Below, one piece after another: positions 7,532 to 61,462 of a stretch of 64,000 nt of DNA. The first letter of the stretch is position 1. Every line of letters starts with the position of its first letter. Both the position numbers and the translations under genes were made by a program. Source of the DNA: an uncultured Enterobacterales bacterium (lineage in GTDB: Bacteria; Myxococcota_A; UBA796; JAFGLY01); contig CAYZVO010000004.1 in assembly GCA_964481655.1 (NCBI GenBank), positions 1,702 through 65,701 of the forward strand, in the 5' to 3' direction. The notes under the pieces are model-generated. The model was given only the letters and a program-made list of their open reading frames with translations. It was not told where the DNA came from and did not search any database.

Positions 7532-8554
7532 ATGCGCGTCCAACTCGCCATCCTTTGTTGCATCCTGCCCAGCACGCTGGCCGCCTCCTGCTACCCCAAC
7601 GGCGCGACGGTCAAGGACGACACATCCTGGACCCCGGTGGACACCGAAGGCGACACCGACACCGACGCCGACACGGACACCGACACGGACACCGACGTGG
7701 TCGACACCGGGACACCCTGGGACGAACGCAGCTGGCCCAGCTCCCAGGAGATGTTCATCGCCTTCGCCTACCCGGCGTCCCAGGAGCAACTGTCGGTCGA
7801 GATGGGCCTGCACATCATGGGGGCCGATCAGGTCGACAGCACCACCTGGACCCTCGACTACGAGGGCACGGACTGGACCATCCACATCGAGCGCAGCGCC
7901 GAGAACATGAACGAAGGCCTGCGCACGCCGGGCGCCGTCGTGATCTACGCCGGCCACTCGAACTACGGCCTGGGCGGTGTGTTCTCCGATCTGCCCGACT
8001 TGAGCCCCATCGAGGAGATCACCACCGTCGAGGACTTCTACAACTTCGGCGGCCCCCACGCGGCGATCAACTACGCCTACCTGGTCCAGGAGCAGGCCTA
8101 CCCCAACCTCGTCATCCGGCCGGACGACATCGCCGAGGACCCCGAAAACTACCTGGTCCCGATCCTAGAGGAAGAGCGCTTCCCCAACTCCGCGGGCGTG
8201 GGCGTCGGCGACACCTTCCCGCTGCAGGGCAGCGGCTCGAGCGCCTACCACTACAGCAGCGACGGCAACGCCTACCTGATCGTCAACGCGGGCGCGGACG
8301 ACATCCCTCCGCCCGAGGAACAGCAGTACGACGTGCTCTTCGTCAAGAGCTGCAACTCGGGCCGCTACTACATCGAGAGCTTCCAGCGCGGCGACTTCTT
8401 CTACACCATCGACAACGTCTACGCCGAAGAGATGGTGGTCACGGTCGACCTGTTCGTGAAGCACATCATCATGCGGACCCCCTACTGGGAGATCCCCGAC
8501 CTGCTGGACGAGCGCGAAGGCAACGACGTCTACGAGTGGGTCAAGATCGATTGA
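7532..8554 (+). CDS. hypothetical lipoprotein with (Asp-Thr)n linker
   Basis: Signal and lipobox ILPSTLAASC, then DTEGDTDTDADTDTDTDTDVVDTG. The globular part has AVVIYAGHSNYG ... VLFVKSCNSGRYY (a possible His/Cys pair, see findings). High GC3. Confidence 0.6.
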   Translation: MRVQLAILCCILPSTLAASCYPNGATVKDDTSWTPVDTEGDTDTDADTDTDTDTDVVDTGTPWDERSWPSSQEMFIAFAYPASQEQLSVEMGLHIMGADQVDSTTWTLDYEGTDWTIHIERSAENMNEGLRTPGAVVIYAGHSNYGLGGVFSDLPDLSPIEEITTVEDFYNFGGPHAAINYAYLVQEQAYPNLVIRPDDIAEDPENYLVPILEEERFPNSAGVGVGDTFPLQGSGSSAYHYSSDGNAYLIVNAGADDIPPPEEQQYDVLFVKSCNSGRYYIESFQRGDFFYTIDNVYAEEMVVTVDLFVKHIIMRTPYWEIPDLLDEREGNDVYEWVKID

Positions 8555-8567
8555 TCCCGTTCGCGTT

Positions 8568-9380
8568 CTAGCGCAGGTAGTCGAAGCCCTCGAAGTCCAT
8601 CTGGAAGCTGTAGCCGTCGACCTGGCCGCCGGACTCGCCGCTGACGCAGTCCAGCCCGCGGGCGTCCATGAGGTCGTTCAGGGTCTCGTAGCCCCACTTC
8701 TGCCAGCCCTCGAGCACGATGGAGAGGGCCTCGGCCTCGGAGATGCAGCCGGTGATGGAGGCGGAGACCTCGGCGTCGTCCTCGAGGAACACGCCAGACA
8801 TCTGGGCCTGGTGCACCGAGAAGCCGAAGCCGAAGCCGCCGACGTTGCCGAAGTTCATGGTGATGCCGGAATCGGTCGAGCTGAAGCGGCCGCCGTCCAT
8901 CACGTTGCTCAGGGTCATCGGGGAGCCCGACGCCGAGAAGTCGTACTCGCCCGAGTCGTCCGGGCCCACCGGCTCGCCCACGCCGAAGGATGAGTCGAAG
9001 GTGGCGCCGATCTCGCCATCGACGTCGAACAGGATGACGATGGTGTCCGAGTAGGGCGGCATCAGCCCCTCGAAGAGCCCGTCGACCACGTCGTTGAGGT
9101 AGTCGGCCTCGAGGAACTCGGTGAAGTACAGGGCCGAGACCACGAAGGTGGGGGACTCACGGGTGGTGTAGTCCGGCCCCGGATCCGTGTCGGTGTCGCT
9201 GTCGGCGTCGGTGTCCGCGTCGGTGTCGCCGTCGGCGTCGGTGTCGGTGTCCGTGTCGGTGTCGGTGTCCGCGTCGCCGTCGGGCACGTCCGTGTCGTCG
9301 CCGATCACGAGGCCCTTGTGGCAGGTGCCCGCCAGGGCGATGGGCAGGGCGGCGGCGAGGGCGAGGATCCGGAGCTTCAT
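8568..9380 (-). CDS. hypothetical lipoprotein with long (Asp-Thr/Ala)n linker
   Basis: Start trimmed to MKLRILALAAALPIALAGTC (lipobox), followed by DGDADTDTDTDTDTDADGDTDADTDADSDTDTD. The track ORF extends upstream without support. Confidence 0.6.
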   Translation of the reverse strand: MKLRILALAAALPIALAGTCHKGLVIGDDTDVPDGDADTDTDTDTDTDADGDTDADTDADSDTDTDPGPDYTTRESPTFVVSALYFTEFLEADYLNDVVDGLFEGLMPPYSDTIVILFDVDGEIGATFDSSFGVGEPVGPDDSGEYDFSASGSPMTLSNVMDGGRFSSTDSGITMNFGNVGGFGFGFSVHQAQMSGVFLEDDAEVSASITGCISEAEALSIVLEGWQKWGYETLNDLMDARGLDCVSGESGGQVDGYSFQMDFEGFDYLR

Positions 9381-9489: not shown

Positions 9490-10899
9490 TCAGCCCCCCT
9501 CGGGGAGGGCGATGACACGGCGCACCTTGCCCGCCTGGGGGTCCGGCTCGATGCGCTCGAGCGTCCGGACCTCGAGGTCCACCGCGCCCGCGGGGAGCAG
9601 CCCGTCGAGCTGTCCACCCAGCGCGGCCGACGCGGCCTCAGGGCCCGCGCCATCGGCGAGCACCAGGTCGAGCCGCAGGCGCAGGGGTGCGAGCTGGGTC
9701 AGCTGCCAGTCCAGGACCTCGGGGAGCTCGAGCAGGGTCTCGAGCACCAGGGTCGGGTGCAGGGCCGTGCGCCCACCGTCGGGGCGAGGCAACCAGATCA
9801 GCGCGTCGGAGCGCCCCCGCACGGCCATGAGCCGCGGGAGGGTCGAGCCGCAGGGGCAGGGCGAGCGGTCGATGGCGGCGATGTCGCCGAGCTCGTAGCG
9901 GATCAGCGGCAGCAGCGGGTTGAAGAGGTTGGTGATGAGCACCTTGCTGCCGAACTGCCCGTCGGGCACCGGCCGGTGCTGGTCGTCCACGATCTCGAGG
10001 GCCACCATGTCGATGTTGATGTGCAGGCCGTGGCCGTGCTCGCAGCTGCGGGCGATGGGCAGGCACTCCCCTGCCCCGTACAGGTCGTAGACGGGCACCC
10101 CGAAGGTCTCGGAGGCCAGCTGGCGCACCCGGGGCGACAGGGGCTCGCTCAAGGAGACCACCTTGGCCCGGGGCCCACCGAGGATGTCCAGCCGGCCCGC
10201 GCGGGCCTCCTCGACGAGCAGCTCGAGCACCGAGGGATAGGCGAACAGGATCTGCGGCTGCCCCCGCTGCAGGCGGTCGACGATCCCCTCGATGGGCTCC
10301 CGCAGGGAGATGCGGTCCACCGCGATGAACCAGCGGGAGGCCGCGGGCTGATGCAGGAAGTTGGCGTGGGAGGGCGCGAAGCCGCCGTCCATCAGGACGC
10401 AGGCGATCTTCAGGGCCTCGGGATCGAAGGCCCGCTTCAAGATGCGGGACCCGGAGGCGTCCACCATGGAGCCCCGGGCCAGGTTCACGGCCCGCACCTC
10501 GTCGAAGGCCTCGGCGGCATAGGCCACGACCACCGGCCGGCCCGAGGTCCCCGAGGTGCGGATGATCACGCGGCCGCCGTAGCGCAGGCCCTGGTTCGCC
10601 GGCTCGGCCATGAAGGCCTCGAGCTCGGAGAGCTTCAAGGAGTGGTCGGTGCTGATGTCGTCGAAACGATCCATCAGCGTGGCCTTGTCCATGGTGGGCA
10701 GCGAGGCCAGCTCGACGTCGCGGGGATCGATCCCCGCCAGCCGCTCCCTGTGGAAGGGGGAGCGCTGCTGGGCGAGCGCCACCAGCTCCTCGAGCCGCTG
10801 GCGCTGGACCCGCTCGAGCTGTTCGACGGGCAGGGTGGACTGGCGCCGATAGCGGCGGATCAGGCGCAGCATCCTGACGAGCTCGATCATGGAGTCCAC
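9490..10899 (-). CDS. adenylate-forming enzyme, phenylacetate-CoA ligase (PaaK)/coenzyme F390 synthetase-like family
   Basis: IIRTSGTSGRPVVV (AMP-binding P-loop-like), YGAGE, and ITNLFNPLLPLIRYELGDIA typical of the PaaK/CapK family. Confidence 0.7.
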   Translation of the reverse strand: MDSMIELVRMLRLIRRYRRQSTLPVEQLERVQRQRLEELVALAQQRSPFHRERLAGIDPRDVELASLPTMDKATLMDRFDDISTDHSLKLSELEAFMAEPANQGLRYGGRVIIRTSGTSGRPVVVAYAAEAFDEVRAVNLARGSMVDASGSRILKRAFDPEALKIACVLMDGGFAPSHANFLHQPAASRWFIAVDRISLREPIEGIVDRLQRGQPQILFAYPSVLELLVEEARAGRLDILGGPRAKVVSLSEPLSPRVRQLASETFGVPVYDLYGAGECLPIARSCEHGHGLHINIDMVALEIVDDQHRPVPDGQFGSKVLITNLFNPLLPLIRYELGDIAAIDRSPCPCGSTLPRLMAVRGRSDALIWLPRPDGGRTALHPTLVLETLLELPEVLDWQLTQLAPLRLRLDLVLADGAGPEAASAALGGQLDGLLPAGAVDLEVRTLERIEPDPQAGKVRRVIALPEGG

Positions 10900-11694: not shown

Positions 11695-14600
11695 ATGTCG
11701 TGCACCCCGGCACCGGTCCGACCCATGCACATCCTCGCGCTCCCCCTCATCGCCACCCTGCAGGCCGCCACGATCACCGTGGGCTCGGGCTCGAGCTACG
11801 ACCACGCCAGCATCCAGGACGCCATCGACGACGCCAGCGACGGGGACACCATCACGGTGGCCACGGGCACCTACGCCGAGTCCATCGACCTGGCGGGCAA
11901 GGAGCTCACCATCGAGTCCTCGGGCTCCACCTCCCGCACGGTCATCGCGCCGACGGGGAGCTCGCCCGCGATCACGGTGGACCAGGGCGAGAGCGCCGTG
12001 ACGGTCGAGGGCTTCACCATCCAGCCCAGCGGCGGCCGGGCCATCTGGGTCGAGGACTCCAGCCCCTCGTTCGTGGACCTCGCCATCGACAGCGCGGGCA
12101 CGCCGTCCAGCGGTCAAGGCGGCGCCATCTACATCTCCGGCGGCGCCCCCAGCTTCGACCAGCTCGAGGTCTCGGGCAGCCGCGCGGCCTACGGCGGGGA
12201 CCTCTACCTGACCGATCACGCCGACGTGCTGATCACCGACAGCAGCTTCGACAGCTCCCAGGCCACCTTCGGAGGCAGCGTCTGGGCCGAGAACTCCACC
12301 CTCACCCTCATCTCCGTCAGCGCGGTGGACGCGCGCTCCTCCAACTCGGGGGGCTGGGGCTACTTCGACAACGCCGAGCTGTACGCCACGGACCTCGAGC
12401 TCGAGGACCCCAGCGGCGACACCTGCTTCGGCGCCGGGCTGTTCGCCCTGGACCACAGCCACGTGGAGTGGGACGGCGGGGGCGTCAGCGGCGCCGTCGC
12501 GGACGAGTACCGCTCCGGCTACACCGGCGGCGCGGTCCACCTGCGCGGCTCGTCGACCTTCGACGGCACCGACCTGCTCTTCGAGGACAACCTGGCCTAC
12601 GCCGGCGGCGCCATGGACGTGCAGGACAGCGCCAGCGCGACCCTGACGGACTGCAACTTCGACGACAACGAGGCCTACACCAAGGGCGGCGGCCTGCGGG
12701 CCTACGACAGCGGCTCGGCGGCCTGCGACGGCTGCGCCTTCGAGGGCAACGTCGCCGCTGAAGGCGGCGCGGTCGATGTGAGCGTGGACGCCAGCTACAC
12801 GGATCAGGACGGCAGCTACGACGACAACGAGGCCAGCTCCGGCGACGGCGGCGCCGTCCGCGTGGCCGACGACGCCGAGGTCTACATCGAGGGCGCCAGC
12901 TTCGAGGGCAACGCCGCCAGCGAGTCCGGCGGCGCCCTGGCGGTGGAGGACCCGGGCGACGAGGACGTCTACCTGGTCAGCGCTACCTTCACCTCGAACA
13001 CCGCCCAGACCGGCGACGGCGGCGCGGTGGCCATCACCTCCGACGCCAACCTGTGGCTGGATCTGTGCAGCTTCGACCTCAACGAGGCCTCTCTGGGCTG
13101 GGGCGGCGCGGTGGCCTTCGATCCCGACAGCCCGGGCTACACCCTCGAGGCCAGCGACTGCACCTTCGAGGAGAACCAGGCCGACGACGGCGGCGGCGCG
13201 CTGTGGGCCAACGAAGCGGACGAGATCACAGTCCTGGACTCCGCCTTCCTCCGCAACGAGTCGGCCGCTGACGGCGGCGCACTGTACCTCGAGGGCAACG
13301 ACGAGGTGCTGGCCCGCCGCAACCTGTTCCACGAGAACACCGCCGTCTCGGTGGGCGGCGCCTACTACGAGACGGGCACCGCCATCAGCGCCGAGGTCAC
13401 CAACTGCATCTTCTCCGAGAACATGGCGACGCTGGGCGCCGCCGTGGCCCTCGAGGACCAGACCATCCAGATGGAGCTGGTCAACAACAACCTCACCGGC
13501 AACGACGCCACCAGCGACGGCGCCCACCTCTACCTGAGCTCCGCGACCATCAGCTTCGTCAACAACATCGCCACCAACGGCGTGGACGGCGGCGGGCTGT
13601 ACGCGGCGGACAGCGCCTCGGCCTCGGGATCCGACTTCTACTACGACGACGTGTGGTCCAACTCCGGCGGAGACTACACCGGCACCCTGACCGACCCGGT
13701 GGGGACCAGCGGCAACATCTCCGAGGATCCCCAGCTGCGCTCCTACACCCAGGACGGGGACGAGACCAACGACGACCACCACCTGGAGCTCGACAGCCCC
13801 TGCCTGGACCAGGGCGACCCCAGCATCGTCGATCTGGACGGCACCCAGTCGGACATCGGCGTGTACGGCGGCCCCTACGCGGACGGCTCCGACGCCGACG
13901 GCGACGGCTACTGGGACATCACCGACTGCGACGACACCGACCCCACCATCCACCCCGGCGCCGAGGAGACCCCCTACGACGGGATCGACCAGGACTGCGA
14001 CGGGCACGATCTGATCGACGTGGACGGCGACGGCTACGAGGCCCCGGACGTGGGGGGCACCGACTGCGACGACGATGATGCGACCATCTATCCGGGCGCG
14101 CCGGACACCTGGTACGACGGCGTGGACAGCGACTGCGCCGGGGACGACGACTACGATCAGGACGGCGACGGCTACCAGTCCTCCGCCTACGGCGGCCAGG
14201 ACTGCGACGACACCGATCCCAACATCAACCCCGGCGTGCCCGACACCTGGTACGACGGCGTGGACAGCGACTGCGACGGCCACAGCGACTACGACGCCGA
14301 CTACGACGGCCGGGACGACGTCGGCTACGGCGGCGACGACTGCGACGACACCGACGGCAGCATCTACCCCGGCGCCACCGAGATCCCCTACGACGGCCTC
14401 GACCAGGACTGCGACGGCGAAGACATCACCGACGTGGACCAGGACGGCTACGACGCCGAGGTGGTGGGCGGCACCGACTGCGACGACGAGAACGCCGAGG
14501 CCTACCCCGGCGCCCCCGATGACCCCTACGACGGCGTGGACACCGACTGCGACGGCTTCCACGACTACGATCTGGACCACGACGGCTACATCCCGGTCAC

Positions 14601-16857
14601 CTTCGGCGGCGAGGACTGCGACGACACCGACCCGATGATCAGCCCCGAGGCCGACGAGATCTGGTACGACGGCGTGGACCAGGACTGCGACGAGCACAGC
14701 GACTACGACCAGGACTTCGACGGCTGGGACAGCGACCAGTACGGCGGCGAGGACTGCGACGACACCCACGCCGACGCCCACCCCGGCGCCACCGAGATCT
14801 GGTACGACGGCATCGACCAGGCCTGCGACGGCGGCGACGACTACGACCAGGACGGCGACGGCTGGCAGTGGTCGGCCTTCTACGGCCCCGAGGACGACTG
14901 CAACGACGAGAACGCCCACATCCACCCCGGGGCGGTGGAGCAGTTCAACGGGCTGGACGACGACTGCGACGGCTGGACGGAGCTGGACGACCGGGACCAG
15001 GACGGCATGGCCGACTGGTTCGAGTGGATGCACGGCACCGACTACGAGAACCCGGACACCGACGGCGACACCCTGCTGGACGGCGAGGAGATCGACAGCA
15101 CCCTCGACCCCGCTGACACCGACGCGGACACCATCATCGATCCCCTGGACGAGGACGACGACGGAGACGGCATCCCCAGCCGCACCGAGCTGACCACCGA
15201 CGTGGACGACGACCAGATCTGGGACCAGGACGTGGACGGCGACGGCCTGCTCAACTCCGTGGACAAGGACGCCGACGGCGACAGCTACCCCGACCGCACC
15301 GAGGGCACCGAGGATCGGGACCGCGACGGCGTGCCCGACTACCTGGACTACACCGGGGACTACGCCGGAGGCGGCTGCGCGGCCCTCAGCGGCTGCGGCG
15401 GCGGCAACGGCGGCCTGGCCGGCCTGCTGCTGCTCGGCGGCCTGTTCGGCTCCCGGCGCCGGCGTCGGGCCACCATCTGGGCCCCCCTCGCGGGCCTGGG
15501 CCTGCTGCTGGCGCTCGCGCTCCAGCCCGGCGCCGCCACGGCGGCGGAGGACTACGACGCCGTGGACGTGCGCGGGTTCTGGATGGCCGACACCTCCGGC
15601 GATCCCCACCGCCCCGTGCGCCTGGCCTACCCCTCCTCGGGCACCGGCTGGGACGCCGGCCTGCTGGTGGACGCCGCCCGCAATCCCCTGGTCGAGGTCA
15701 TGCCCGACGGCCGCGAGGCCATCGTCGACCTGATGACCAGCGCCCACGCCTTCGGCGGCATCTCCTGGCGGGGAATGCGCTTCGACATGGCGGTGCCGGT
15801 CACCCTCTACGGGCACGATCTGGCGGGCGGCTTCGCCGCCATGGGCGACCTGCGGGCCGGGATGCACGGGCCCGCCGTGGCCCCCCGGGGCAGCGGCCCC
15901 GGGGGGGGTGTGGCCGCCTGGGGCTGGCTGCCCACCGGAGGCGAGGCCCGCTGGTCCGGCAGCCCCGGGGCCGCCGCGGGCGCCGTGGCGACGGTGGCCC
16001 AGGAGATCGGCCCCATCGGCTGGACCGTCAACGCCGGCGTGCGCGTGGCCCGCGCCGACGACGCCCGCAACATCCGCTCCGGGCCCGGCCCCCTGGGGGG
16101 CGCGGACCTGCACTACAGCGTCACCGACGCCCTCGCCGGGGGCGTCGGCGCCGTGGTCCAGGGCACCACCGGCTGGAGCTCCTGGCCCCTCGTGGCCGAC
16201 GCCCGGGTCCGCTACCGGGTCCGCGGTGGCGGCTTCGCCATCGCCGGCCTGGCCACCGGCATCACCGACGGCGTCGGCGCCGCGGGAGCGCGGGCCTACG
16301 CCGGCGTCGGCTACGGCCGGCGGCGCTCGGACTGGAGCCCCGCGATCATCGAGGCGCCCGTGCCCACCCTGATCCACGAGGTCACGGTCCAGCCCGGTGA
16401 GCTGCCGCTGGTGGAGCAGCCCCTGGCCTTCCTGGCCGAGGACCGCATCGTGGTCGGCGAGCAGATCTTCTTCCGCGAGGCCCGCACCGCGATCCTGCCG
16501 GAGAGCGAAGAGGTGCTCGAGGCCGTCCGCGACGTGCTGATGGAGCATCCCGAGGTCACCTGGCTGCTGGTGGAGGGACACACCAACTCCCGCGGCAGCG
16601 AGGGCTACAACCTCGAGCTGTCCGAGGGCCGCGCCCAGGCCGTGGTCGACTGGCTGGTGGCCCACGGCGTCCCCTCCGAGCGCCTGCTGGCCAAGGGCCA
16701 CGGCGAGAACCAGCCCCTGCTCGAGGACAACCACCCCGACGCCATGGTGGTCAACCGCCGGGTGGAGTTCCTGGTCCTGCGCTCGGACGAGACCCCGGAC
16801 GACGTGGTGCGCCCGGACCAGAACGCCGTCCCCGATGAGGCGTGGAAGGATCGATAG
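11695..16857 (+). CDS. giant secreted repeat protein: Pmp-type parallel beta-helix, 8 MopE-like Cys/Asp repeats, TSP3-like Ca-binding repeats, internal MYXO-CTERM-like segment, C-terminal OmpA domain
   Basis: Signal-like MHILALPLIATLQA (alternative ATG 11725). Repeated FxxN...GGA(L/V) units. Eight copies of DCDDxDxxIxPGAxExxYDGxDxDCDG. DxDxDG runs. GGGCAALSGCGGGNGGLAGLLLLGGLFGSRRRRR. The C-terminus LLVEGHTNSRGSEGYNLELSEGRAQAV...NRRVEFLV matches the OmpA_C signature. Confidence 0.8.
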   Translation: MSCTPAPVRPMHILALPLIATLQAATITVGSGSSYDHASIQDAIDDASDGDTITVATGTYAESIDLAGKELTIESSGSTSRTVIAPTGSSPAITVDQGESAVTVEGFTIQPSGGRAIWVEDSSPSFVDLAIDSAGTPSSGQGGAIYISGGAPSFDQLEVSGSRAAYGGDLYLTDHADVLITDSSFDSSQATFGGSVWAENSTLTLISVSAVDARSSNSGGWGYFDNAELYATDLELEDPSGDTCFGAGLFALDHSHVEWDGGGVSGAVADEYRSGYTGGAVHLRGSSTFDGTDLLFEDNLAYAGGAMDVQDSASATLTDCNFDDNEAYTKGGGLRAYDSGSAACDGCAFEGNVAAEGGAVDVSVDASYTDQDGSYDDNEASSGDGGAVRVADDAEVYIEGASFEGNAASESGGALAVEDPGDEDVYLVSATFTSNTAQTGDGGAVAITSDANLWLDLCSFDLNEASLGWGGAVAFDPDSPGYTLEASDCTFEENQADDGGGALWANEADEITVLDSAFLRNESAADGGALYLEGNDEVLARRNLFHENTAVSVGGAYYETGTAISAEVTNCIFSENMATLGAAVALEDQTIQMELVNNNLTGNDATSDGAHLYLSSATISFVNNIATNGVDGGGLYAADSASASGSDFYYDDVWSNSGGDYTGTLTDPVGTSGNISEDPQLRSYTQDGDETNDDHHLELDSPCLDQGDPSIVDLDGTQSDIGVYGGPYADGSDADGDGYWDITDCDDTDPTIHPGAEETPYDGIDQDCDGHDLIDVDGDGYEAPDVGGTDCDDDDATIYPGAPDTWYDGVDSDCAGDDDYDQDGDGYQSSAYGGQDCDDTDPNINPGVPDTWYDGVDSDCDGHSDYDADYDGRDDVGYGGDDCDDTDGSIYPGATEIPYDGLDQDCDGEDITDVDQDGYDAEVVGGTDCDDENAEAYPGAPDDPYDGVDTDCDGFHDYDLDHDGYIPVTFGGEDCDDTDPMISPEADEIWYDGVDQDCDEHSDYDQDFDGWDSDQYGGEDCDDTHADAHPGATEIWYDGIDQACDGGDDYDQDGDGWQWSAFYGPEDDCNDENAHIHPGAVEQFNGLDDDCDGWTELDDRDQDGMADWFEWMHGTDYENPDTDGDTLLDGEEIDSTLDPADTDADTIIDPLDEDDDGDGIPSRTELTTDVDDDQIWDQDVDGDGLLNSVDKDADGDSYPDRTEGTEDRDRDGVPDYLDYTGDYAGGGCAALSGCGGGNGGLAGLLLLGGLFGSRRRRRATIWAPLAGLGLLLALALQPGAATAAEDYDAVDVRGFWMADTSGDPHRPVRLAYPSSGTGWDAGLLVDAARNPLVEVMPDGREAIVDLMTSAHAFGGISWRGMRFDMAVPVTLYGHDLAGGFAAMGDLRAGMHGPAVAPRGSGPGGGVAAWGWLPTGGEARWSGSPGAAAGAVATVAQEIGPIGWTVNAGVRVARADDARNIRSGPGPLGGADLHYSVTDALAGGVGAVVQGTTGWSSWPLVADARVRYRVRGGGFAIAGLATGITDGVGAAGARAYAGVGYGRRRSDWSPAIIEAPVPTLIHEVTVQPGELPLVEQPLAFLAEDRIVVGEQIFFREARTAILPESEEVLEAVRDVLMEHPEVTWLLVEGHTNSRGSEGYNLELSEGRAQAVVDWLVAHGVPSERLLAKGHGENQPLLEDNHPDAMVVNRRVEFLVLRSDETPDDVVRPDQNAVPDEAWKDR
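13890..14975 (+). repeat. coding tandem array of 8 MopE-like putative metal-binding repeats (~38-40 aa each)
   Basis: ITDCDDTDPTIHPGA, GTDCDDDDATIYPGA, GQDCDDTDPNINPGV, GDDCDDTDGSIYPGA, GTDCDDENAEAYPGA, GEDCDDTDPMISPEA, GEDCDDTHADAHPGA, EDDCNDENAHIHPGA. Each is followed by YDGxDxDCDG. Confidence 0.8.
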
Positions 16858-16890
16858 GGACAGGGCGACGCCTGGGCCCGGCCCGAGGGA

Positions 16891-16928
16891 GCTGATAGGC
16901 GACAGCTGACAGCTGACAGCTGACAGCT
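16891..16928. repeat. family A heptamer array (GCTGACA)n, solo arm
   Basis: GCTGATA GGCGACA GCTGACA GCTGACA GCTGACA GCT, lying between stop 16857 and start 16938. Confidence 0.85.
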
Positions 16929-16937
16929 CGGAGCCCC

Positions 16938-17831
16938 ATGCTCTCCTGGACCAAAGCCGGGGCCGTCAAGCGGCCCCCCCCCCTGCAGATCCGCGTGCAG
17001 CGCCGCTACCCGGACCGGGTGCGCGCGGGGGCTCCCCTGCCCACCCGCAGCCTGTCCCGGGCCGAGCTGCTCGCCAACCTGCGGCACTTCACCGAGGGCA
17101 AGCGGGGCCCGCGCACCGCGCCCTGCACCACCCTGGTGCTCTCGGGGGTCGGGCTGCTGGCCTCGCCGGACACCGCGCCGGTGCTCGAGGCCGCTCGCGA
17201 GCTCGGCATCGAGCACGTGGTGCTGCACGCTGGCACCGAGGACCTGGCCGGCTTCGACGCCGCCCCCTGGAGCGCGCTGGTGGACGTCCTGGTGGTCCCC
17301 CTGCAGCCGGGCCGGGGCGACGCGCTGCTGGAGCATGGCGCGCGAGCGGTCGCCGCCTGTCGGGAGGCGGGCATCGAGGTGGCCGCCAACACCGTGCTCC
17401 GCGCCGAGGCGGTAGACGCCCTGACAGCCCTCGTCGGCCTGGTGCAGCGCCTCGCCCCCCACAGCCTGACCCTGTCCTACCCCTTCCCCAGCGGCGGTCC
17501 CCAGCCCGCCCCGCCTCACCCTCGGGCGCTGCTGCCTGCGCTGCAGCGGGCCGTGGAACAGCTCGAGGCGGCCGGAGCCGACCCACGGCTCAAGGGCCTG
17601 CCCGCCTGCTGGCTGGGTCCCCTCGCCCACCGCCTCCGCCCGTCGTCCAACCGCTGGTACGTCGACGCCGATCACCAACTGGACGGCGCGCTGCTGTTCT
17701 TCCCGGACGTGCTGGCCTTCCACAAGGGCGACGCCTGCCGCTTCTGCGTCAGCGACGGACGCTGCGACGGCTTCTTCGCCGCCTGGCTGCGCCAGCCGGG
17801 CTTCCCCGGGCTGGAGCCGATGGACGCCTGA
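16938..17831 (+). CDS. hypothetical protein, possibly a radical-SAM/SPASM-derived fold lacking the CxxxCxxC triad
   Basis: High GC3. LVLSGVGLLASPDTAPVLEAARELGIEHVVLHAG resembles the GGEP/TIM-barrel core. The C-terminal CRFCVSDGRCDG is Cys-rich. No N-terminal Cys triad. Confidence 0.45.
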   Translation: MLSWTKAGAVKRPPPLQIRVQRRYPDRVRAGAPLPTRSLSRAELLANLRHFTEGKRGPRTAPCTTLVLSGVGLLASPDTAPVLEAARELGIEHVVLHAGTEDLAGFDAAPWSALVDVLVVPLQPGRGDALLEHGARAVAACREAGIEVAANTVLRAEAVDALTALVGLVQRLAPHSLTLSYPFPSGGPQPAPPHPRALLPALQRAVEQLEAAGADPRLKGLPACWLGPLAHRLRPSSNRWYVDADHQLDGALLFFPDVLAFHKGDACRFCVSDGRCDGFFAAWLRQPGFPGLEPMDA

Positions 17832-20612: not shown

Positions 20613-20618
20613 CCCGGG

Positions 20619-20787
20619 AGCTATCAGCCGTCAGCTGTCAGCTATCAGCTCCGTTTCGCCAGCCGCAGCGCCCCTGGTGAGCCAGCGGCGTTGCGCCCCG
20701 TGGGCGTCGATCGGCTCGCGACGTCACTGGCCCACCGCCGGCGCGTCCGCCCGGCGTGACGAGGCTGACGGCTGACAGCTGACAGCT
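20619..20787. repeat. family A element: heptamer inverted-repeat arms flanking a ~110-bp conserved core
   Basis: Left arm AGCTATC AGCCGTC AGCTGTC AGCTATC AGCT. Right arm GCTGACG GCTGACA GCTGACA GCT. The core is homologous to the reverse complement of 36371-36482. Confidence 0.85.
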
Positions 20788-20789
20788 CC

Positions 20790-26411: not shown

Positions 26412-26492
26412 GGAAGGTCGGGGGAGGCGAGAGGCGAGAGGCGAGTCGCGACCTACGACCGACGACACACGACTCGCGACCCACCTACGACC
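26412..26492. repeat. family B heptad-periodic palindromic element (short copy)
   Basis: GGCGAGA GGCGAGA GGCGAGT CGCGACC TACGACC GACGACA CACGACT CGCGACC. GCGAGTCG pairs with CGACTCGC. It fills the gap between stops 26411 and 26493. Confidence 0.8.
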
Positions 26493-30170: not shown

Positions 30171-30369
30171 GGCGGGAGGTCGAACGCGGGTCGCAGGAGG
30201 CGAGTCGTCGGAGGCGAGTCGCGAGTCGCGAGTCGATGAAGGTCAGAGGTGGGTCGACCTACGACCTACGACCATCCTCCATCGCCCCACCTTGCTCGAC
30301 TCGCGACTGGCGACTGGCGACTGGCGACCCACGACTCGCGTCCTCCCTCCCACCACGCTCCCGTCTGCG
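30171..30369. repeat. family B heptad-periodic palindromic element (full copy)
   Basis: Left half has AGTCGNN heptads, centre is CGAGTCGATGAAGGTCAGAGGTGGGTCGA, right half has NNNCGAC heptads (CTACGAC x2, TGGCGAC x3). It fills the gap between stops 30170 and 30370. Confidence 0.85.
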
Positions 30370-34661: not shown

Positions 34662-36344
<1,683 letters not shown>

Positions 36345-36345
36345 A

Positions 36346-36506
36346 AGCTGTCAGCCGTCAGCTGTCAGCCTCGTCCCGCTGGTCCGCGGCGCCGGCGGTG
36401 GGCCGGTGATGCAGTGGCGGTGCGAGCGTCCGCGGGGCGCAGCGCTGCTGGCTCACCGCGACGTTGAACCCGGCACAACGGAGCTGACAGCTGAGAGCTG
36501 AGAGCT
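36346..36506. repeat. family A element, second full copy in inverted orientation
   Basis: Left arm AGCTGTC AGCCGTC AGCTGTC AGCC. Right arm GCTGACA GCTGAGA GCTGAGA GCT. The reverse complement of the core shares GGTGAGCCAGCRGCGYTGCGCCCCG and GGCCCACCGCCGGCGC with 20651-20763. Confidence 0.85.
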
Positions 36507-36508
36507 CG

Positions 36509-58425: not shown

Positions 58426-58872
58426 CGCGGACGTCGCCTGGAACGAGGGGCCCTGCGGGGCCCCTTCGTCGCTTCAGGTGCCCCCGAAGCACCCGCCGCG
58501 CCGCGGTACGACCGACGCCCGAGAGCCCGTCTCCCGGGGGAAAAAAAATGTGTCGGAAAAAACGTTGACAAGTCAAGGCTTTACCGTGAATCCACCTTTA
58601 TAGTTGCTTCCAAGACCTTGAAATTGTCCGCGTATTTGGTGAGACTCCTACCCGAATGGTGCTGCGGACCCGCGCCGTGGCCCGACCCTCTCCACCCGGA
58701 GGTTGGACAGACTGGACTGGCTGCCGTTCCTGAGCCGCCGTTCCCGCCCCTTTGCTGGCGTTCTCGCTCGTTCCTCGCCTGGCTTGGGTGAAGCCATCCC
58801 GAGGATTGCCGCCGCTGTCACCCCCAGTCCTTCTGTCCTTCCTCCGGCCCCTTCCCCCGCCCTCAGCGCTTC

Positions 58873-59988
58873 ATGGGTTCACCCGCCCTTCAGCTCCCGG
58901 ATCTGCGCCGTGGCCACCTGCCGGCCCGCCCCTCGGCCCCCGTGGGCGCGCGAACGCTGAAGCTGGCCCTGACGGTCGCCCACAAGTGCCTCGAGCCCCG
59001 CAGCCGGGAGCGCTTCGTCGAAGAGCCCGCGCCGCGGGCGGTGGAGCGCATCCCGTACCGCACCGAAGACGGCTGGCAGTGCTTCCTGTTCCGCTGCCCG
59101 CCCCCCCCGGGCGCCCCCGGTGAGCCGGTCATCCTGGCCCACGGGCTGGGGCTGAACCGGCTGAGCATGGACTACGCGCAGGAGGGCCTCATCGCCCTGC
59201 TGCACGCCTGGGGCTTCGACGTCTACCTGCTGGAGCACCGGGCCGACGCCTCGGCCTTCCCGCCCCGTCACCCCCGCAGCTTCGACGCCGACACCATCGC
59301 CGCCCAGGACGTGCCCGCCGCCATCCAGGCGGTGCTGGACCGCACCGGGCACCGCCAGGTGGGCTGGATCGGCCACGGCTTCGGCGGCCAGCTGCTCTAC
59401 ATCCACCTGGCCCAGGATCCCTACGCGCCGGTCTACGCCGCGGCCTGCCTGGGCTCGGCCGTGCGCTTCGCCCCCCCCGGCAGCACCGCCCGGGCCGCCG
59501 CACTGGTGGCCCGCCTGCTGCCCTCCCGCATCGGCCTGCCCGCGCGCCAGGTCATGCGCCTGCTGTCACCGAGCGCCAGTGTGAGCCGCTCCCTCGGCCA
59601 CCATGCGAGCCACGGCGCCATCGACGGCCCCGTGCTGCGGGGCGTGCTCAACCACGGCGTCGAGGACCTGCGGGGCGGGCTGGTGCGCCAGGTCTCCCGC
59701 TGGGTCTCCAGCGGCGTGCTCTGCGATCGCGACGACCGCATCGACTACCTCGAGGCCATCCGCGACCACGCCCTGCCCCTGCTGGTGGTCGCCTCCCCCG
59801 GCGACCGCGTCTGCGAGCCCGAGGCCGCCCTGAGGGTCCTGGACTACATGGGCGAGGGCAACAAGCGTTCCCTGGTCCTGGCGGAGCCCTGCGGCCACCT
59901 GGATCTGGTGCAGGGCAGGCTGGCAGAGACGGCGACAGGGCCCGCGGTGGCGTCGTGGCTGGATGCGCACCGCCGGAGGGCCTGGTAG
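58873..59988 (+). CDS. alpha/beta-hydrolase-fold protein with Gly in the nucleophile position
   Basis: VILAHGLGLNR. Nucleophile elbow reads WIGHGFGGQ (G-H-G-F-G instead of G-x-S-x-G). Start uncertain. Confidence 0.6.
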   Translation: MGSPALQLPDLRRGHLPARPSAPVGARTLKLALTVAHKCLEPRSRERFVEEPAPRAVERIPYRTEDGWQCFLFRCPPPPGAPGEPVILAHGLGLNRLSMDYAQEGLIALLHAWGFDVYLLEHRADASAFPPRHPRSFDADTIAAQDVPAAIQAVLDRTGHRQVGWIGHGFGGQLLYIHLAQDPYAPVYAAACLGSAVRFAPPGSTARAAALVARLLPSRIGLPARQVMRLLSPSASVSRSLGHHASHGAIDGPVLRGVLNHGVEDLRGGLVRQVSRWVSSGVLCDRDDRIDYLEAIRDHALPLLVVASPGDRVCEPEAALRVLDYMGEGNKRSLVLAEPCGHLDLVQGRLAETATGPAVASWLDAHRRRAW

Positions 59989-60211
59989 CGGGCTGAGGGG
60001 TCGTGGGTCGCAGGTCGTAGGTCGTAGGTCGTAGGTCGCCAGCCGTGGGAGGCGAGTCGCCAGTCGCGAGTCGATGAAGGTCCGAGGATGGTCGAAGGAC
60101 GATCTACGACCCACCTCCTACGAGTTCCTCCATCCTCCCACCTACATCCTCTGGCGATTCACCTCTCGCCTCCCACGACTCGCCTCCCACCTCCAACGTC
60201 CAACCTCCTAC
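59989..60211. repeat. family B heptad-periodic palindromic element (second full copy)
   Basis: CGTAGGT x3. GTGGGAGGCGAGTCG (60045-60059) pairs with CGACTCGCCTCCCAC (60176-60190). The centre CGAGTCGATGAAGGTCCGAGGATGGTCGA is shared with 30171-30369. It fills the gap between stops 59988 and 60212. Confidence 0.85.
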
Positions 60212-61462
60212 CTAGTACGGCAACCAGTCCTCGGGCATCCACGCCCGCCCCACGAACAGATAGCCGGGATCGATGGATGAGCTGCCCGACCCGAAGTACT
60301 CGCTGACATAGCCGAGGCCATCGGTGCTGCCCTGGCAGGACCAGTAGTAGATGCCGTCGATGTCGCCGTCGCCGTTGCGCTCCCAGTCGATGAAGACCAC
60401 CGAGTGGCCGCTGCCTGAGTTGCGCCAGAACTGCACGAAGTCGCCGGGCTGCACGTCCTCGAGGTCGGTGACCTCTTCGCCCAGGCCCCTCAGCTCCATG
60501 GCCTCCGACGCGCCCGCGCCCCACAAGTCGCGCACGTACCAGTCCGTGCGGAACTCGTAGAGCTCGTCCACGTCCATGTCGTTCAGGTACGCGTCCGATC
60601 CACCCAGGATGCGCTGGTAGGCGCGCATGTACAGCTCCCAGGTGATGCCGACGCAGTAGCAGGAGCGGGCGGCGTTGGCCTCGGCCACCAGGGTGTCCAG
60701 GTACCAGATGTCCTGGGTGGTGCCCGCGTAGCTGCCGTCCCAGGCGTAGTCGTGGGTGCCGTCGGTGGGGTAGGCCTCGAGCAGGTTCATGGTGGTGGTG
60801 TTGAAGTCCGAGTCCACCGGGTCGGTGCCCTCGAGGACCGTGATGGTCACATCGTCGGTGGCCACCAATTCGCCGCCGTCGTAGGCCCGGGCCTGGATGT
60901 CCCGCTCGTAGCCAGTGCCCTCGAACTCGTAGCGCAGCATCCCGCCGGGCTCGGTGGTGCCCAGCTCCCAGTCGTCGGCGTACAGGGCGATCTCGTCGAC
61001 GTCGCTCGAGCCGTCCACGACGAAGCGCACCGGGTTGTCCACCTCGGCGCCGTCGGCTGGGCTGACGATGGTGACCCAGGACGCATCCTCGCCCGCCACC
61101 CGCACCGTGAGCTCGTGCCGGGACAGCTCGCTGCTGTCGCTGTCGGCGCCCACCAGGGCCAGGCGATGCCGGCCCTCGTCCAGGGTGACCCGCATGCTGC
61201 CGTCCAGGCGACCCACCGGCTGGTCCTCGACCACGACGTCGCCGTTGGACTCGAGCCAGACCCGAGCCACATCGTCGCCAGCGGTGAAGGCCAGGTCGAA
61301 GGGGGAGCCGGTGGTCTCGCCGTTGCTGGGTGAGGTGACCCGCACGTCGGTGTCCCGCTGGAAGTCCTCTCCCGGAAGCTCCGTGCGAGCATCGCTGTCG
61401 TCACCACAGGCGGACGCCCCGAAGAGCAACGCGACGAGGATGAATGGGGAGCTGGCTCGCAT
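60212..61462 (-). CDS. lipoprotein with two Ig-like modules and a C-terminal papain-like (NlpC/P60- or CHAP-like) domain
   Basis: Start trimmed to MRASSPFILVALLFGASAC (lipobox). Repeated V(T/R)(I)VSPxxGxxxxxP modules. C-terminal SCYCVGITWELY and PGDFVQFWRNSGSGHSVVFI suggest a Cys/His pair. Confidence 0.6.
   Translation of the reverse strand: MRASSPFILVALLFGASACGDDSDARTELPGEDFQRDTDVRVTSPSNGETTGSPFDLAFTAGDDVARVWLESNGDVVVEDQPVGRLDGSMRVTLDEGRHRLALVGADSDSSELSRHELTVRVAGEDASWVTIVSPADGAEVDNPVRFVVDGSSDVDEIALYADDWELGTTEPGGMLRYEFEGTGYERDIQARAYDGGELVATDDVTITVLEGTDPVDSDFNTTTMNLLEAYPTDGTHDYAWDGSYAGTTQDIWYLDTLVAEANAARSCYCVGITWELYMRAYQRILGGSDAYLNDMDVDELYEFRTDWYVRDLWGAGASEAMELRGLGEEVTDLEDVQPGDFVQFWRNSGSGHSVVFIDWERNGDGDIDGIYYWSCQGSTDGLGYVSEYFGSGSSSIDPGYLFVGRAWMPEDWLPY

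Follow-up and report, generated by a model that had tools for sequence, protein, structure and literature searches.

We found that the 223-nt gap between two convergent genes at positions 59989-60211 of a 64-kb stretch of bacterial chromosome (the window, all 64,000 nt analysed here) is occupied by a hairpin-forming repeat of 213 nt that reads in degenerate heptanucleotides (heptads) along its whole length. By comparison with related lineages, this element is a recent insertion into a spacer of ~10 bases or fewer that altered neither flanking protein, and by alignment it shares ancestry with a second copy at 30171-30369. It is best read as a non-autonomous repeat of G-rich heptameric arrays, similar to repetitive extragenic palindromes (REPs), bacterial interspersed mosaic elements (BIMEs) or MITEs (miniature inverted-repeat transposable elements). 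We give slightly better than even odds (a probability of roughly 0.55) to the combined reading that the inserted, dispersed heptad palindrome acts as a two-way 3'-end hairpin, a functional step that we infer. The locus is organised as follows.

58873/58942-59988, + strand: alpha/beta hydrolase gene (Pfam Abhydrolase_1)
59986-59988, + strand: native TAG stop of the hydrolase gene, C-terminus ...HRRRAW-stop; C-terminus and stop position the same in four relatives
59989-59998: residual spacer CGGGCTGAGG between the hydrolase stop and the element
59999-60211: inserted element, 213 nt, ~30 degenerate heptads, imperfect palindrome (BLAST break against lineage L124, lag-7 periodicity, inverted arms)
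60212-60214, − strand: native TAG stop (CTA on the + strand) of the Big_7-domain gene, C-terminus ...WLPY-stop, conserved in four relatives
60212-61429, − strand: gene with a Big_7 domain (Pfam)

Gene calls agree with a preliminary description of this DNA that 59989-60211 is the complete gap (223 nt) separating two convergent stop codons. Three open reading frames (ORFs) that overlap the gap (60074-60280, 60088-60306 and 59566-60114) were set aside as candidate coding sequence, as they extend into the antisense of real genes.

Two other metagenome assemblies of the same population (L121 and L122) carry the locus at 99.9% identity, with a gap of 223 nt and an identical element. The same convergent gene pair was compared in four more distant lineages, in which the hydrolase is 80-85% identical and both C-termini are the same as in the window (...HRRRAW-stop and ...WLP[YW]-stop). 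The distances between the two stop codons at this junction, and the junction sequences, are:

L124: 9 nt, TAG-CGCCCTTGG-CTA
L246/L247: 11 nt, TAG-TCGGGCCCCGC-TCA
L248/L249: 1 nt, TAG-A-TCA
L250: 2 nt, TAG-CG-CTA

The BLAST alignment of the window with L124 runs up to 59990 and resumes at 60219. The short gaps in the relatives and this break in the alignment therefore mark the element as derived, an insertion of ~213 nt into a near-empty junction. The 59989-59998 spacer (CGGGCTGAGG), whose homology to the relatives' spacer we infer, is probably a remnant of the ancestral gap of 1-11 nt. The locus is a natural experiment, in which the same gene pair is seen with the element and, in four lineages, without it, the proteins being unchanged; four neighbouring junctions repeat the experiment.

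The earlier description of the element as the second full copy of a dispersed family (family B), whose marks are arrays of heptads, a centre in common and an inverted pair, is borne out. The copies of family B at hand, two full and one short within 64 kb of genome, and the core common to the full copies are:

30171-30369: sister full copy, fills a convergent stop-to-stop gap; the upstream + strand gene is confirmed by an orthologue (73.6% identity)
26412-26492: short relative of 81 nt, arms only, without the shared centre, fills a convergent stop-to-stop gap
60027-60118, + strand: core in common with the 30171-30369 copy, aligned to 30189-30280

The two cores align by BLAST over 92 nt with 82.6% identity (E 7e-18), non-periodic detail such as GATGAAGGTCNGAGG included, and they share the 16-mer CGAGTCGATGAAGGTC, which within the window is found exactly at 60067 and 30229 only (with up to three mismatches it has 8 matches in the window against 0.68 expected, the other six being weak). 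The shared centre claimed earlier is thus a real one. As to the proposed division into a conserved core and variable heptad arrays, the 92-nt core is shared and is itself heptad-periodic. The 30171 copy has GAGGCGAGTCG twice in direct orientation, and the inverted partner of this motif has one mismatch (30332-30342).

Two elements of a second family (family A) and a related array are also found in the window:

20613-20789: family A element, fills a convergent stop-to-stop gap; AGCTGTC / GCTGACA heptad arms, centre of ~100 nt
36345-36508: family A element, fills a convergent stop-to-stop gap; AGCTGTC / GCTGACA heptad arms, centre of ~100 nt
16858-16937: (AGCTGAC)x5.6 array in an 80-nt gap between co-directional genes; the array stops 17 nt short of the ATG at 16938

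The family A pair (164-177 nt) is in opposite orientation and is 78.5% identical over 158 nt; family A differs from family B in having no G/C skew, TGA-containing heptads in the 3' arm and no GT[AG]G. Loci 16-30 kb apart share ~80% identity, over 92 nt in family B and over 158 nt in family A, and this means that the elements are copies, which later diverged chiefly in their arrays; growth in place is therefore not the only way in which a heptad hairpin can arise, as it can also come by copying. The 64-kb window has three copies of B and three of A type, and there are none in the ~9 kb beyond it (seen in L121). A scan of a genome collection for the 16-mer CGAGTCGATGAAGGTC, too short a pattern for this purpose, listed 120 matches, all of them single chance matches in unrelated taxa and none with the 21-mer core; viral contigs scanned for the B and A cores gave no match. 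No A or B core or comparable heptad array was found in ~150 kb of related sequence, save for GCTGGGC arrays in L123. There (2160-2900), (GCTGGGC)n heptad arrays flank 4-5 tandem copies of a ~60-nt unit (GATGACGCTCTCAGCGCGTCATTCTCGGGGATGTGGACCCAGA...), and a segment of 70 nt is present in duplicate, one copy to each side (2150-2220 and 2735-2805); a 372-aa ORF is annotated over part of the region. Family B is best explained as a lineage-specific, non-coding dispersed repeat, the whole body of which consists of degenerate heptanucleotides in an array that doubles back on itself.

All five heptad-armed hairpins of the window, from the two families, fill convergent gaps stop to stop, and the array at 16858-16937 is the sole heptad array of the window outside convergent gaps. 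Heptad elements are found in five out of 10 convergent gaps as against one out of 43 other gaps (Fisher p 4.8e-4 for the 64-kb window; the gap counts, ~10 convergent and 43 other, come from a composition-based gene map with one gene added after confirmation by an orthologue). Of the other convergent gaps of the window, some are tiny (0-16 nt) and the remainder contain short hairpins of an ordinary kind. In this lineage, heptad hairpins land almost only between converging genes.

The four neighbouring junctions were compared with their orthologues in a close relative, L251 (MlaE protein 90% identical). The gaps orthologous to those of the elements at 36 kb, 30 kb and 26 kb are 10, 13 and 5 nt long there and hold no element, the empty 26-kb site reading TAG-GTCGC-TCA; the 20-kb site, also without the element, is a gap of 65 nt with an unrelated small hairpin. 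In another relative, L252 (GCA_964512185.1), the 30-kb gap is 5 nt and the genes at the 20-kb site overlap. In these comparisons, each of the five elements of the window fills a convergent junction that in relatives is close to empty.

A separate observation concerns the junction of L252 that is orthologous to the 26-kb site (a 126-nt gap, 10341-10466): it holds an unrelated perfect palindrome of 26 bp (GGTACCTGGATGTTATGATTACATTT / AAATGTAATCATAACATCCAGGTACC), which is AT-rich although the genome is otherwise GC-rich, and after it come short repeats of the TAGTCC type. By its appearance, this is an insertion of another hairpin at a site of the same kind.

The anatomy of the element at 59999-60211 is as follows.

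59999-60038, + strand: array (GGTCGTR)x5.7 at the outer left; all three frames contain TAG, and GT[AG]G comes each 7 nt (Tandem Repeats Finder, TRF, and direct reading)
60045-60059, + strand: left inverted 15-mer GTGGGAGGCGAGTCG, exact reverse complement of 60176-60190
60106-60211, + strand: C-rich, G-poor right arm (C 52%, G 9%) with heptads of the CCTCCNA / CTCCCAC type (base composition and TRF arrays)
60176-60190, + strand: right inverted 15-mer CGACTCGCCTCCCAC, exact reverse complement of 60045-60059
60012-60209: predicted long hairpin of either transcript, 198 nt (RNA and single-stranded DNA folding)
60100-60115: apical loop of the predicted hairpin (innermost predicted pair 60099/60116)

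The 7-nt register noted earlier is found by two measures. TRF reports (GGTCGTA)x5.7 at 59999-60038 (score 66, 90% matches) and weaker 7-nt arrays at 60055-60073, 60126-60151, 60155-60213 and 60183-60213. Over all 223 nt of the gap, identity at lag 7 is 58.8% as compared to 26.9% in dinucleotide shuffles (z 11.1), with z-scores of 10.2, 8.4 and 7.2 at lags 14, 21 and 28; since the signal holds over the full 223 nt, the register spans the entire element, centre included. The inverted 15-mers, checked by reading, are exact as had been stated; the 15-mer begins with GTGG on both strands, and GAGGCGAGTCG is also present on both strands of the element by motif search. The 5' arm is made of G-rich heptads (GGTCGTA, GAGTCGC, GGAGGCG) and the 3' arm of their C-rich near-complements, with GTAG/GTGG each 7 nt in the outer left arm and CTAC/CCAC in the outer right arm. 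The left half has 46 G and 23 C (skew +0.33, 60% purines), and in the right half there are just 10 G in 106 nt, with 55 C (skew -0.69, 27% purines), so that the strand asymmetry reported earlier is real but is mainly one of G versus C, not of purines versus pyrimidines.

The inverted arms span 85 nt and are 71% complementary. Either transcript entering the element is predicted to fold as an imperfect hairpin of 65-72 bp: 65 pairs over 60012-60209 for the + strand RNA (-99.7 kcal/mol, z -3.8 versus shuffles) and 72 pairs for the − strand RNA (-113.4 kcal/mol, z -4.4), while the + strand folded as single-stranded DNA gives -48.3 kcal/mol (z -3.25). The predicted pairing tracks the heptads, with short helices interrupted every 7 nt; the longest helix, of 13 bp, is made by the motif GTGGGAGGCGAG, two tandem complements of which are found in the right arm and allow alternative pairing registers. 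Such registers are also seen in the minimum free energy fold, where the left 15-mer (60045-60059) pairs with the neighbouring repeat at 60165-60177.

The element belongs to a phenomenon that is described but not understood, G-rich heptamers after stop codons. Rehm et al. 2015 (PMC4692102) reported G-rich heptamer repeats in Xanthomonas (GGGAATC) and Nostoc (GGGGA[C/T]T), those of Xanthomonas being on the sense strand at most 50 bp after stop codons, with 70-75 inverted pairs 'in convergent orientation', and found that transcripts start or stop at repeats with putative G-quadruplex (G4) forming potential more often than at control repeats; a detailed literature on heptanucleotide repeats was said to be absent as of 2015. 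By the features used in that study our element falls in the same class: it is intergenic, its array of head-to-tail 7-nt units starts 11 nt past the TAG stop, its sense strand is G-rich after the stop, and its right arm abuts the opposing stop, so that the inverted pair is convergent and the G-rich arm comes first (G-first) on both strands. Length and presence also vary among related genomes in both cases. The element differs in its degenerate, mixed units with GG runs and occasional GGG (poor G4 potential), in being a single 213-nt composite and in having a core common to distant copies; moreover, the Xanthomonas repeats are mostly kept at the same loci between species (83%), whereas the element is absent where flanking proteins are 80-92% identical. 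More broadly, the element is akin to the STRR repeats of cyanobacteria and to the heptanucleotide long simple sequence repeats (SSRs) described by Mrazek et al. 2007. In many bacteria no long SSR unit is as common as the heptamer, and polymerase slippage has been proposed as its origin, according to Mrazek 2007 as cited in PMC4679880; the cause and role of such repeats are left unsettled in PMC4692102 and PMC4679880.

The ingredients of the element are thus precedented (heptameric SSRs, inverted G-rich pairs after stops, REP/BIME/MITE palindromes and hairpins between convergent genes). What is new is their combination in one copied element, the comparison of filled and empty sites at five junctions, and the near-exclusive targeting of stop-to-stop gaps.

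A scan of metagenomes with one search pattern, (GGTCGTA)2GGTCG, gave at least 120 loci (not dereplicated). The matched contigs listed (L126-L245; e.g. L126, 1954-1998, and L141, L224 and L237) come from many samples and have 33-74% GC, and the (GGTCGTA)n arrays listed start, for the most part, at the end of a gene or immediately beyond it, or else a short way upstream of a divergent start codon. Among the matches listed, 35 have a complementary array within 250 nt, which is always downstream, so the G-rich arm is first on both strands in 35 cases to 0. Three pairs built of other units and the three B copies of the window are also G-first, giving 41 out of 41 scored cases (35 of them among the matches listed). 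12 out of the 23 listed pairs with enough flanking sequence are between long convergent ORFs, a figure inflated by spurious ORFs in GC-rich DNA. ORF-context counts of single metagenome arrays (26 versus 10) were discarded as evidence on orientation, as they are biased by the array itself, which stops all + frames. We also rejected, as a general explanation, the idea that the G-first order serves to present stops in all frames to incoming genes: in family A it is the 3' arm that has the TGA, and the GGGAATC unit of Xanthomonas is free of stops. Seen both at this locus and in metagenome contigs unrelated to it, the G-first orientation is a concrete regularity.

If the combined reading, an inserted heptad palindrome acting as a two-way 3'-end hairpin, is right, copies would have been spread by a mechanism acting in trans, either a transposase working on hairpin DNA or ectopic recombination or template switching seeded by heptad microhomology, and the arrays would then grow, shrink and drift through replication slippage. 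Slippage after copying would account for the shared core, the differing arrays and arms of just 71% complementarity. The hairpin, lying in both 3' untranslated regions (UTRs), may serve as a transcript end in both directions, pausing or terminating the convergent RNA polymerases and blocking 3' exonucleases, as has been proposed for REP/BIME elements and for hairpin terminators that have no U-tract; near-abutting genes would in this way be kept from reading into each other. Hairpin terminators without a U-tract are known between convergent genes of GC-rich bacteria such as Streptomyces and Mycobacterium. The element resembles them in being a long GC-rich stem-loop that fills a convergent gap, is symmetric for both transcripts and has no U-tract; such terminators are usually locus-specific and not built of heptads, whereas the element is a copy of a dispersed heptad-periodic family. 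If these hairpins do end transcripts both ways, they would be an example of gene-boundary signals spread by repeat proliferation.

Several points weigh against this combined reading. The relatives live with 1-11 nt between the hydrolase and Big_7 genes, and therefore a terminator is not required at this junction. A scan for a hairpin followed by a T-run found 0 sites on both strands, so that of an intrinsic (Rho-independent) terminator the GC-rich hairpin is present and the U-tract missing, and there is no promoter in the element. The z-scores of the folds are moderate only (-3.8 and -4.4), the outer arms pairing poorly at 71% complementarity. The element is identical in three assemblies that differ by ~0.1% elsewhere, and therefore gives no direct sign of ongoing slippage. 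No transposase was found by Pfam scans of 26 ORFs of the window (some ORFs were left unscanned) or in the Pfam-annotated 20-kb syntenic loci. Family B is represented by just two full copies and one short one. Further points concern the likeness to MITEs, of which Correia/NEMIS of Neisseria and SMAG of Stenotrophomonas are examples that act as transcript-end elements. Like these, the element is non-coding, within 100-250 nt (213 nt), dispersed (copies at ~26.4, 30.2 and 60.0 kb), palindromic with imperfect inverted arms, near stop codons and polymorphic in presence, being absent in relatives; it differs in its interior, a tandem heptad array, and is not known to have a cognate insertion sequence (IS). 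No target-site duplication was discerned when filled and empty sites were compared at the five junctions, the two stop codons alone forming the flanks, nor were discrete terminal inverted repeats discerned in the element.

The main rival keeps the insertion and drops the function: the same repeat may be selfish or neutral, surviving where it does no harm. We regard this as a serious possibility, though clearly below even odds. In a convergent stop gap there is neither a promoter nor a ribosome-binding site for an insertion to disrupt; none of the relatives examined has the element, and gaps of 1-11 nt suffice there; its arms have drifted to 71% complementarity, and it has no conserved signal (U-tract or promoter). 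The AT-rich perfect palindrome of L252 is at one of the same junctions, so that such junctions look like places where hairpin DNA generally collects. A merely tolerated repeat is harder to reconcile with an occupancy as high as half of the convergent gaps in 64 kb and with elements that fill each gap exactly from stop to stop, and the strict G-first order of all scored heptad hairpins, the metagenome matches listed included, suggests a directional constraint beyond tolerance. If the hairpins do nothing, they would be markers of the most permissive sites in a compact genome.

A bolder idea, which we hold to be unlikely, is that of heptad palindromes that propagate themselves and home to convergent stop-to-stop spacers, a mobile terminator or insulator cassette that would bring two-way transcript ends with it and depend for its spread on a 'G-rich arm first' rule. 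The copying could be free of a transposase (template switching or gene conversion seeded by heptad microhomology), and the G-first order in 41 out of 41 cases (mostly from the matches listed) and the stop-to-stop fit would be signatures of the copying itself, not of selection after insertion.

The head-out order is also what would be expected of a REP/BIME (REPIN-like) element mobilised by a REP-associated tyrosine transposase (RAYT; TnpA-REP, a Y1 HUH transposase), with the heptads as tandemly reiterated heads, and the G-first order in 35 out of 35 metagenome pairs among the matches listed agrees with it. REPs are palindromes of 20-50 nt that are preceded by GTAG, often inversely paired and intergenic, and REP/BIME elements are credited with roles in termination and mRNA stabilisation (PMC8266576). 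The element resembles such GTAG-headed, inversely paired, intergenic palindromes in that GT[AG]G recurs at its outward-facing ends on both strands, the 15-mer starts with GTGG both ways, and it is a high-GC extragenic palindrome at gene 3' ends whose inverse pairing leads to a long hairpin. It is, however, much longer, its body is heptad-periodic, and no discrete unit of 20-50 nt can be delimited, the palindrome being the whole 198-nt hairpin; the identically behaving family A has no GT[AG]G; and no Y1_Tnp gene was seen in the ORFs of the window that were scanned or in related loci. A regular-expression screen of six-frame translations of the window and of the metagenome and encoding-contig loci (L121 onward) yielded one Y1_Tnp gene, in L134, which is near a (GGTCGTA)n array but flanked by a different palindrome (GGGTGGGGCACCC) and therefore lends no support to a RAYT link. 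RAYT-associated REP/BIME elements would be expected in hundreds of copies per genome, with a RAYT gene that the same REPs typically flank; the 64-kb window has three B copies and three of A type. On this balance, mobilisation by a RAYT is doubtful.

The Y1_Tnp gene of L134 (8207-8809, IS200-like or RAYT-like, Pfam E 8e-15) is surrounded by palindrome copies containing GGGTGGGGCACCC; a second, truncated Y1-like frame follows it, and the region (7800-9100) adjoins a tRNA gene as well as a (TACGACC)n array. It has the look of a REPtron, but its flanking repeats are not the heptads.

Improbable, too, is a two-way Rho-dependent terminator, in which the distal C-rich arm of each transcript would be a Rho utilization (rut) region just past the stop. 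Sites of this kind are C-rich, G-poor and unstructured. The composition fits, as the + transcript has 106 nt (60106-60211) with 52% C and 9% G and the complement of the left arm, with which the − transcript ends, has 43% C and 21% G, and the region is untranslated and directly follows the stop codons; yet the C-rich arm is predicted to be paired with the G-rich arm that emerges earlier, a C-first order, which would expose the rut site better, was never found among the scored pairs (matches listed), and family A has no G/C skew.

Still less probable is a gene for a small or antisense RNA, or a site acting at the DNA level (a G-quadruplex, a cruciform or an array of protein-binding sites). The long hairpin, the strand asymmetry and the GGAGG/CCTCC motifs might suggest one of these, and the preliminary description had proposed strand-specific small RNAs. 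This proposal found no support: the promoter scan of the element gave no sigma-70-like site on either strand, there is no terminator, Rfam has no family for the element at gathering score, and the element is absent from five related lineages. Far below their thresholds, plant microRNA-precursor models of Rfam (E up to 1; 21-32 bits versus thresholds of 90-168) were dismissed as generic matches to a long hairpin, and one long non-coding RNA model (15 bits versus a threshold of 50) as a chance match. G-rich heptamers of Xanthomonas do form G4 in vitro (PMC4692102), but the four or more tracts of at least three G that define the G-quadruplex subclass of Rehm et al. are not seen here: GGTCGTA and GAGTCGC hold GG or a single G, with sporadic GGG, so a stable G4 is unlikely. 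For a protein-binding array, a spacing of 7 bp would set successive sites on different faces of the helix.

Least probable of all is an SSR that arose on the spot, a short seed next to the stops having expanded by replication slippage, with no copying between loci: the element is heptad-periodic throughout, slippage is the origin proposed for such repeats, and the empty 26-kb site of L251 (TAG-GTCGC-TCA) does resemble a heptad seed, but independent growth cannot give 92 nt at 82.6% identity, GATGAAGGTCNGAGG included, at loci 30 kb apart, and it leaves the 158-nt match of the two family A copies equally unexplained, so that this explanation is largely refuted.

The window is housekeeping chromosome, encoding PolA, DnaE, MreB, SurA, MlaE, an extracytoplasmic function (ECF) sigma factor and similar proteins, and the closest named homologues come from metagenome-assembled genomes of Myxococcota. 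Next to the locus, an unusually long non-coding stretch of ~450-516 nt (58426-58941; C-rich, G 141 and C 200) separates the SurA-like gene from the hydrolase gene. A counterpart of ~440-550 nt is found in all relatives that have both genes, and a search of the stretch against Rfam gave no match; a long 5' UTR is one possibility, an undescribed RNA another. Three in-frame repeats were also observed within genes: a 138/414-nt coding repeat rich in Asp, Cys and Gly codons (13923-14863) within a protein of 1711 aa, a GTGTCG hexamer/18-mer run (9187-9283) within the gene at 8568-9380, and (CCCGAG)x18.7 (35934-36045) towards the 3' end of the gene that runs up to the 36345 family A element.

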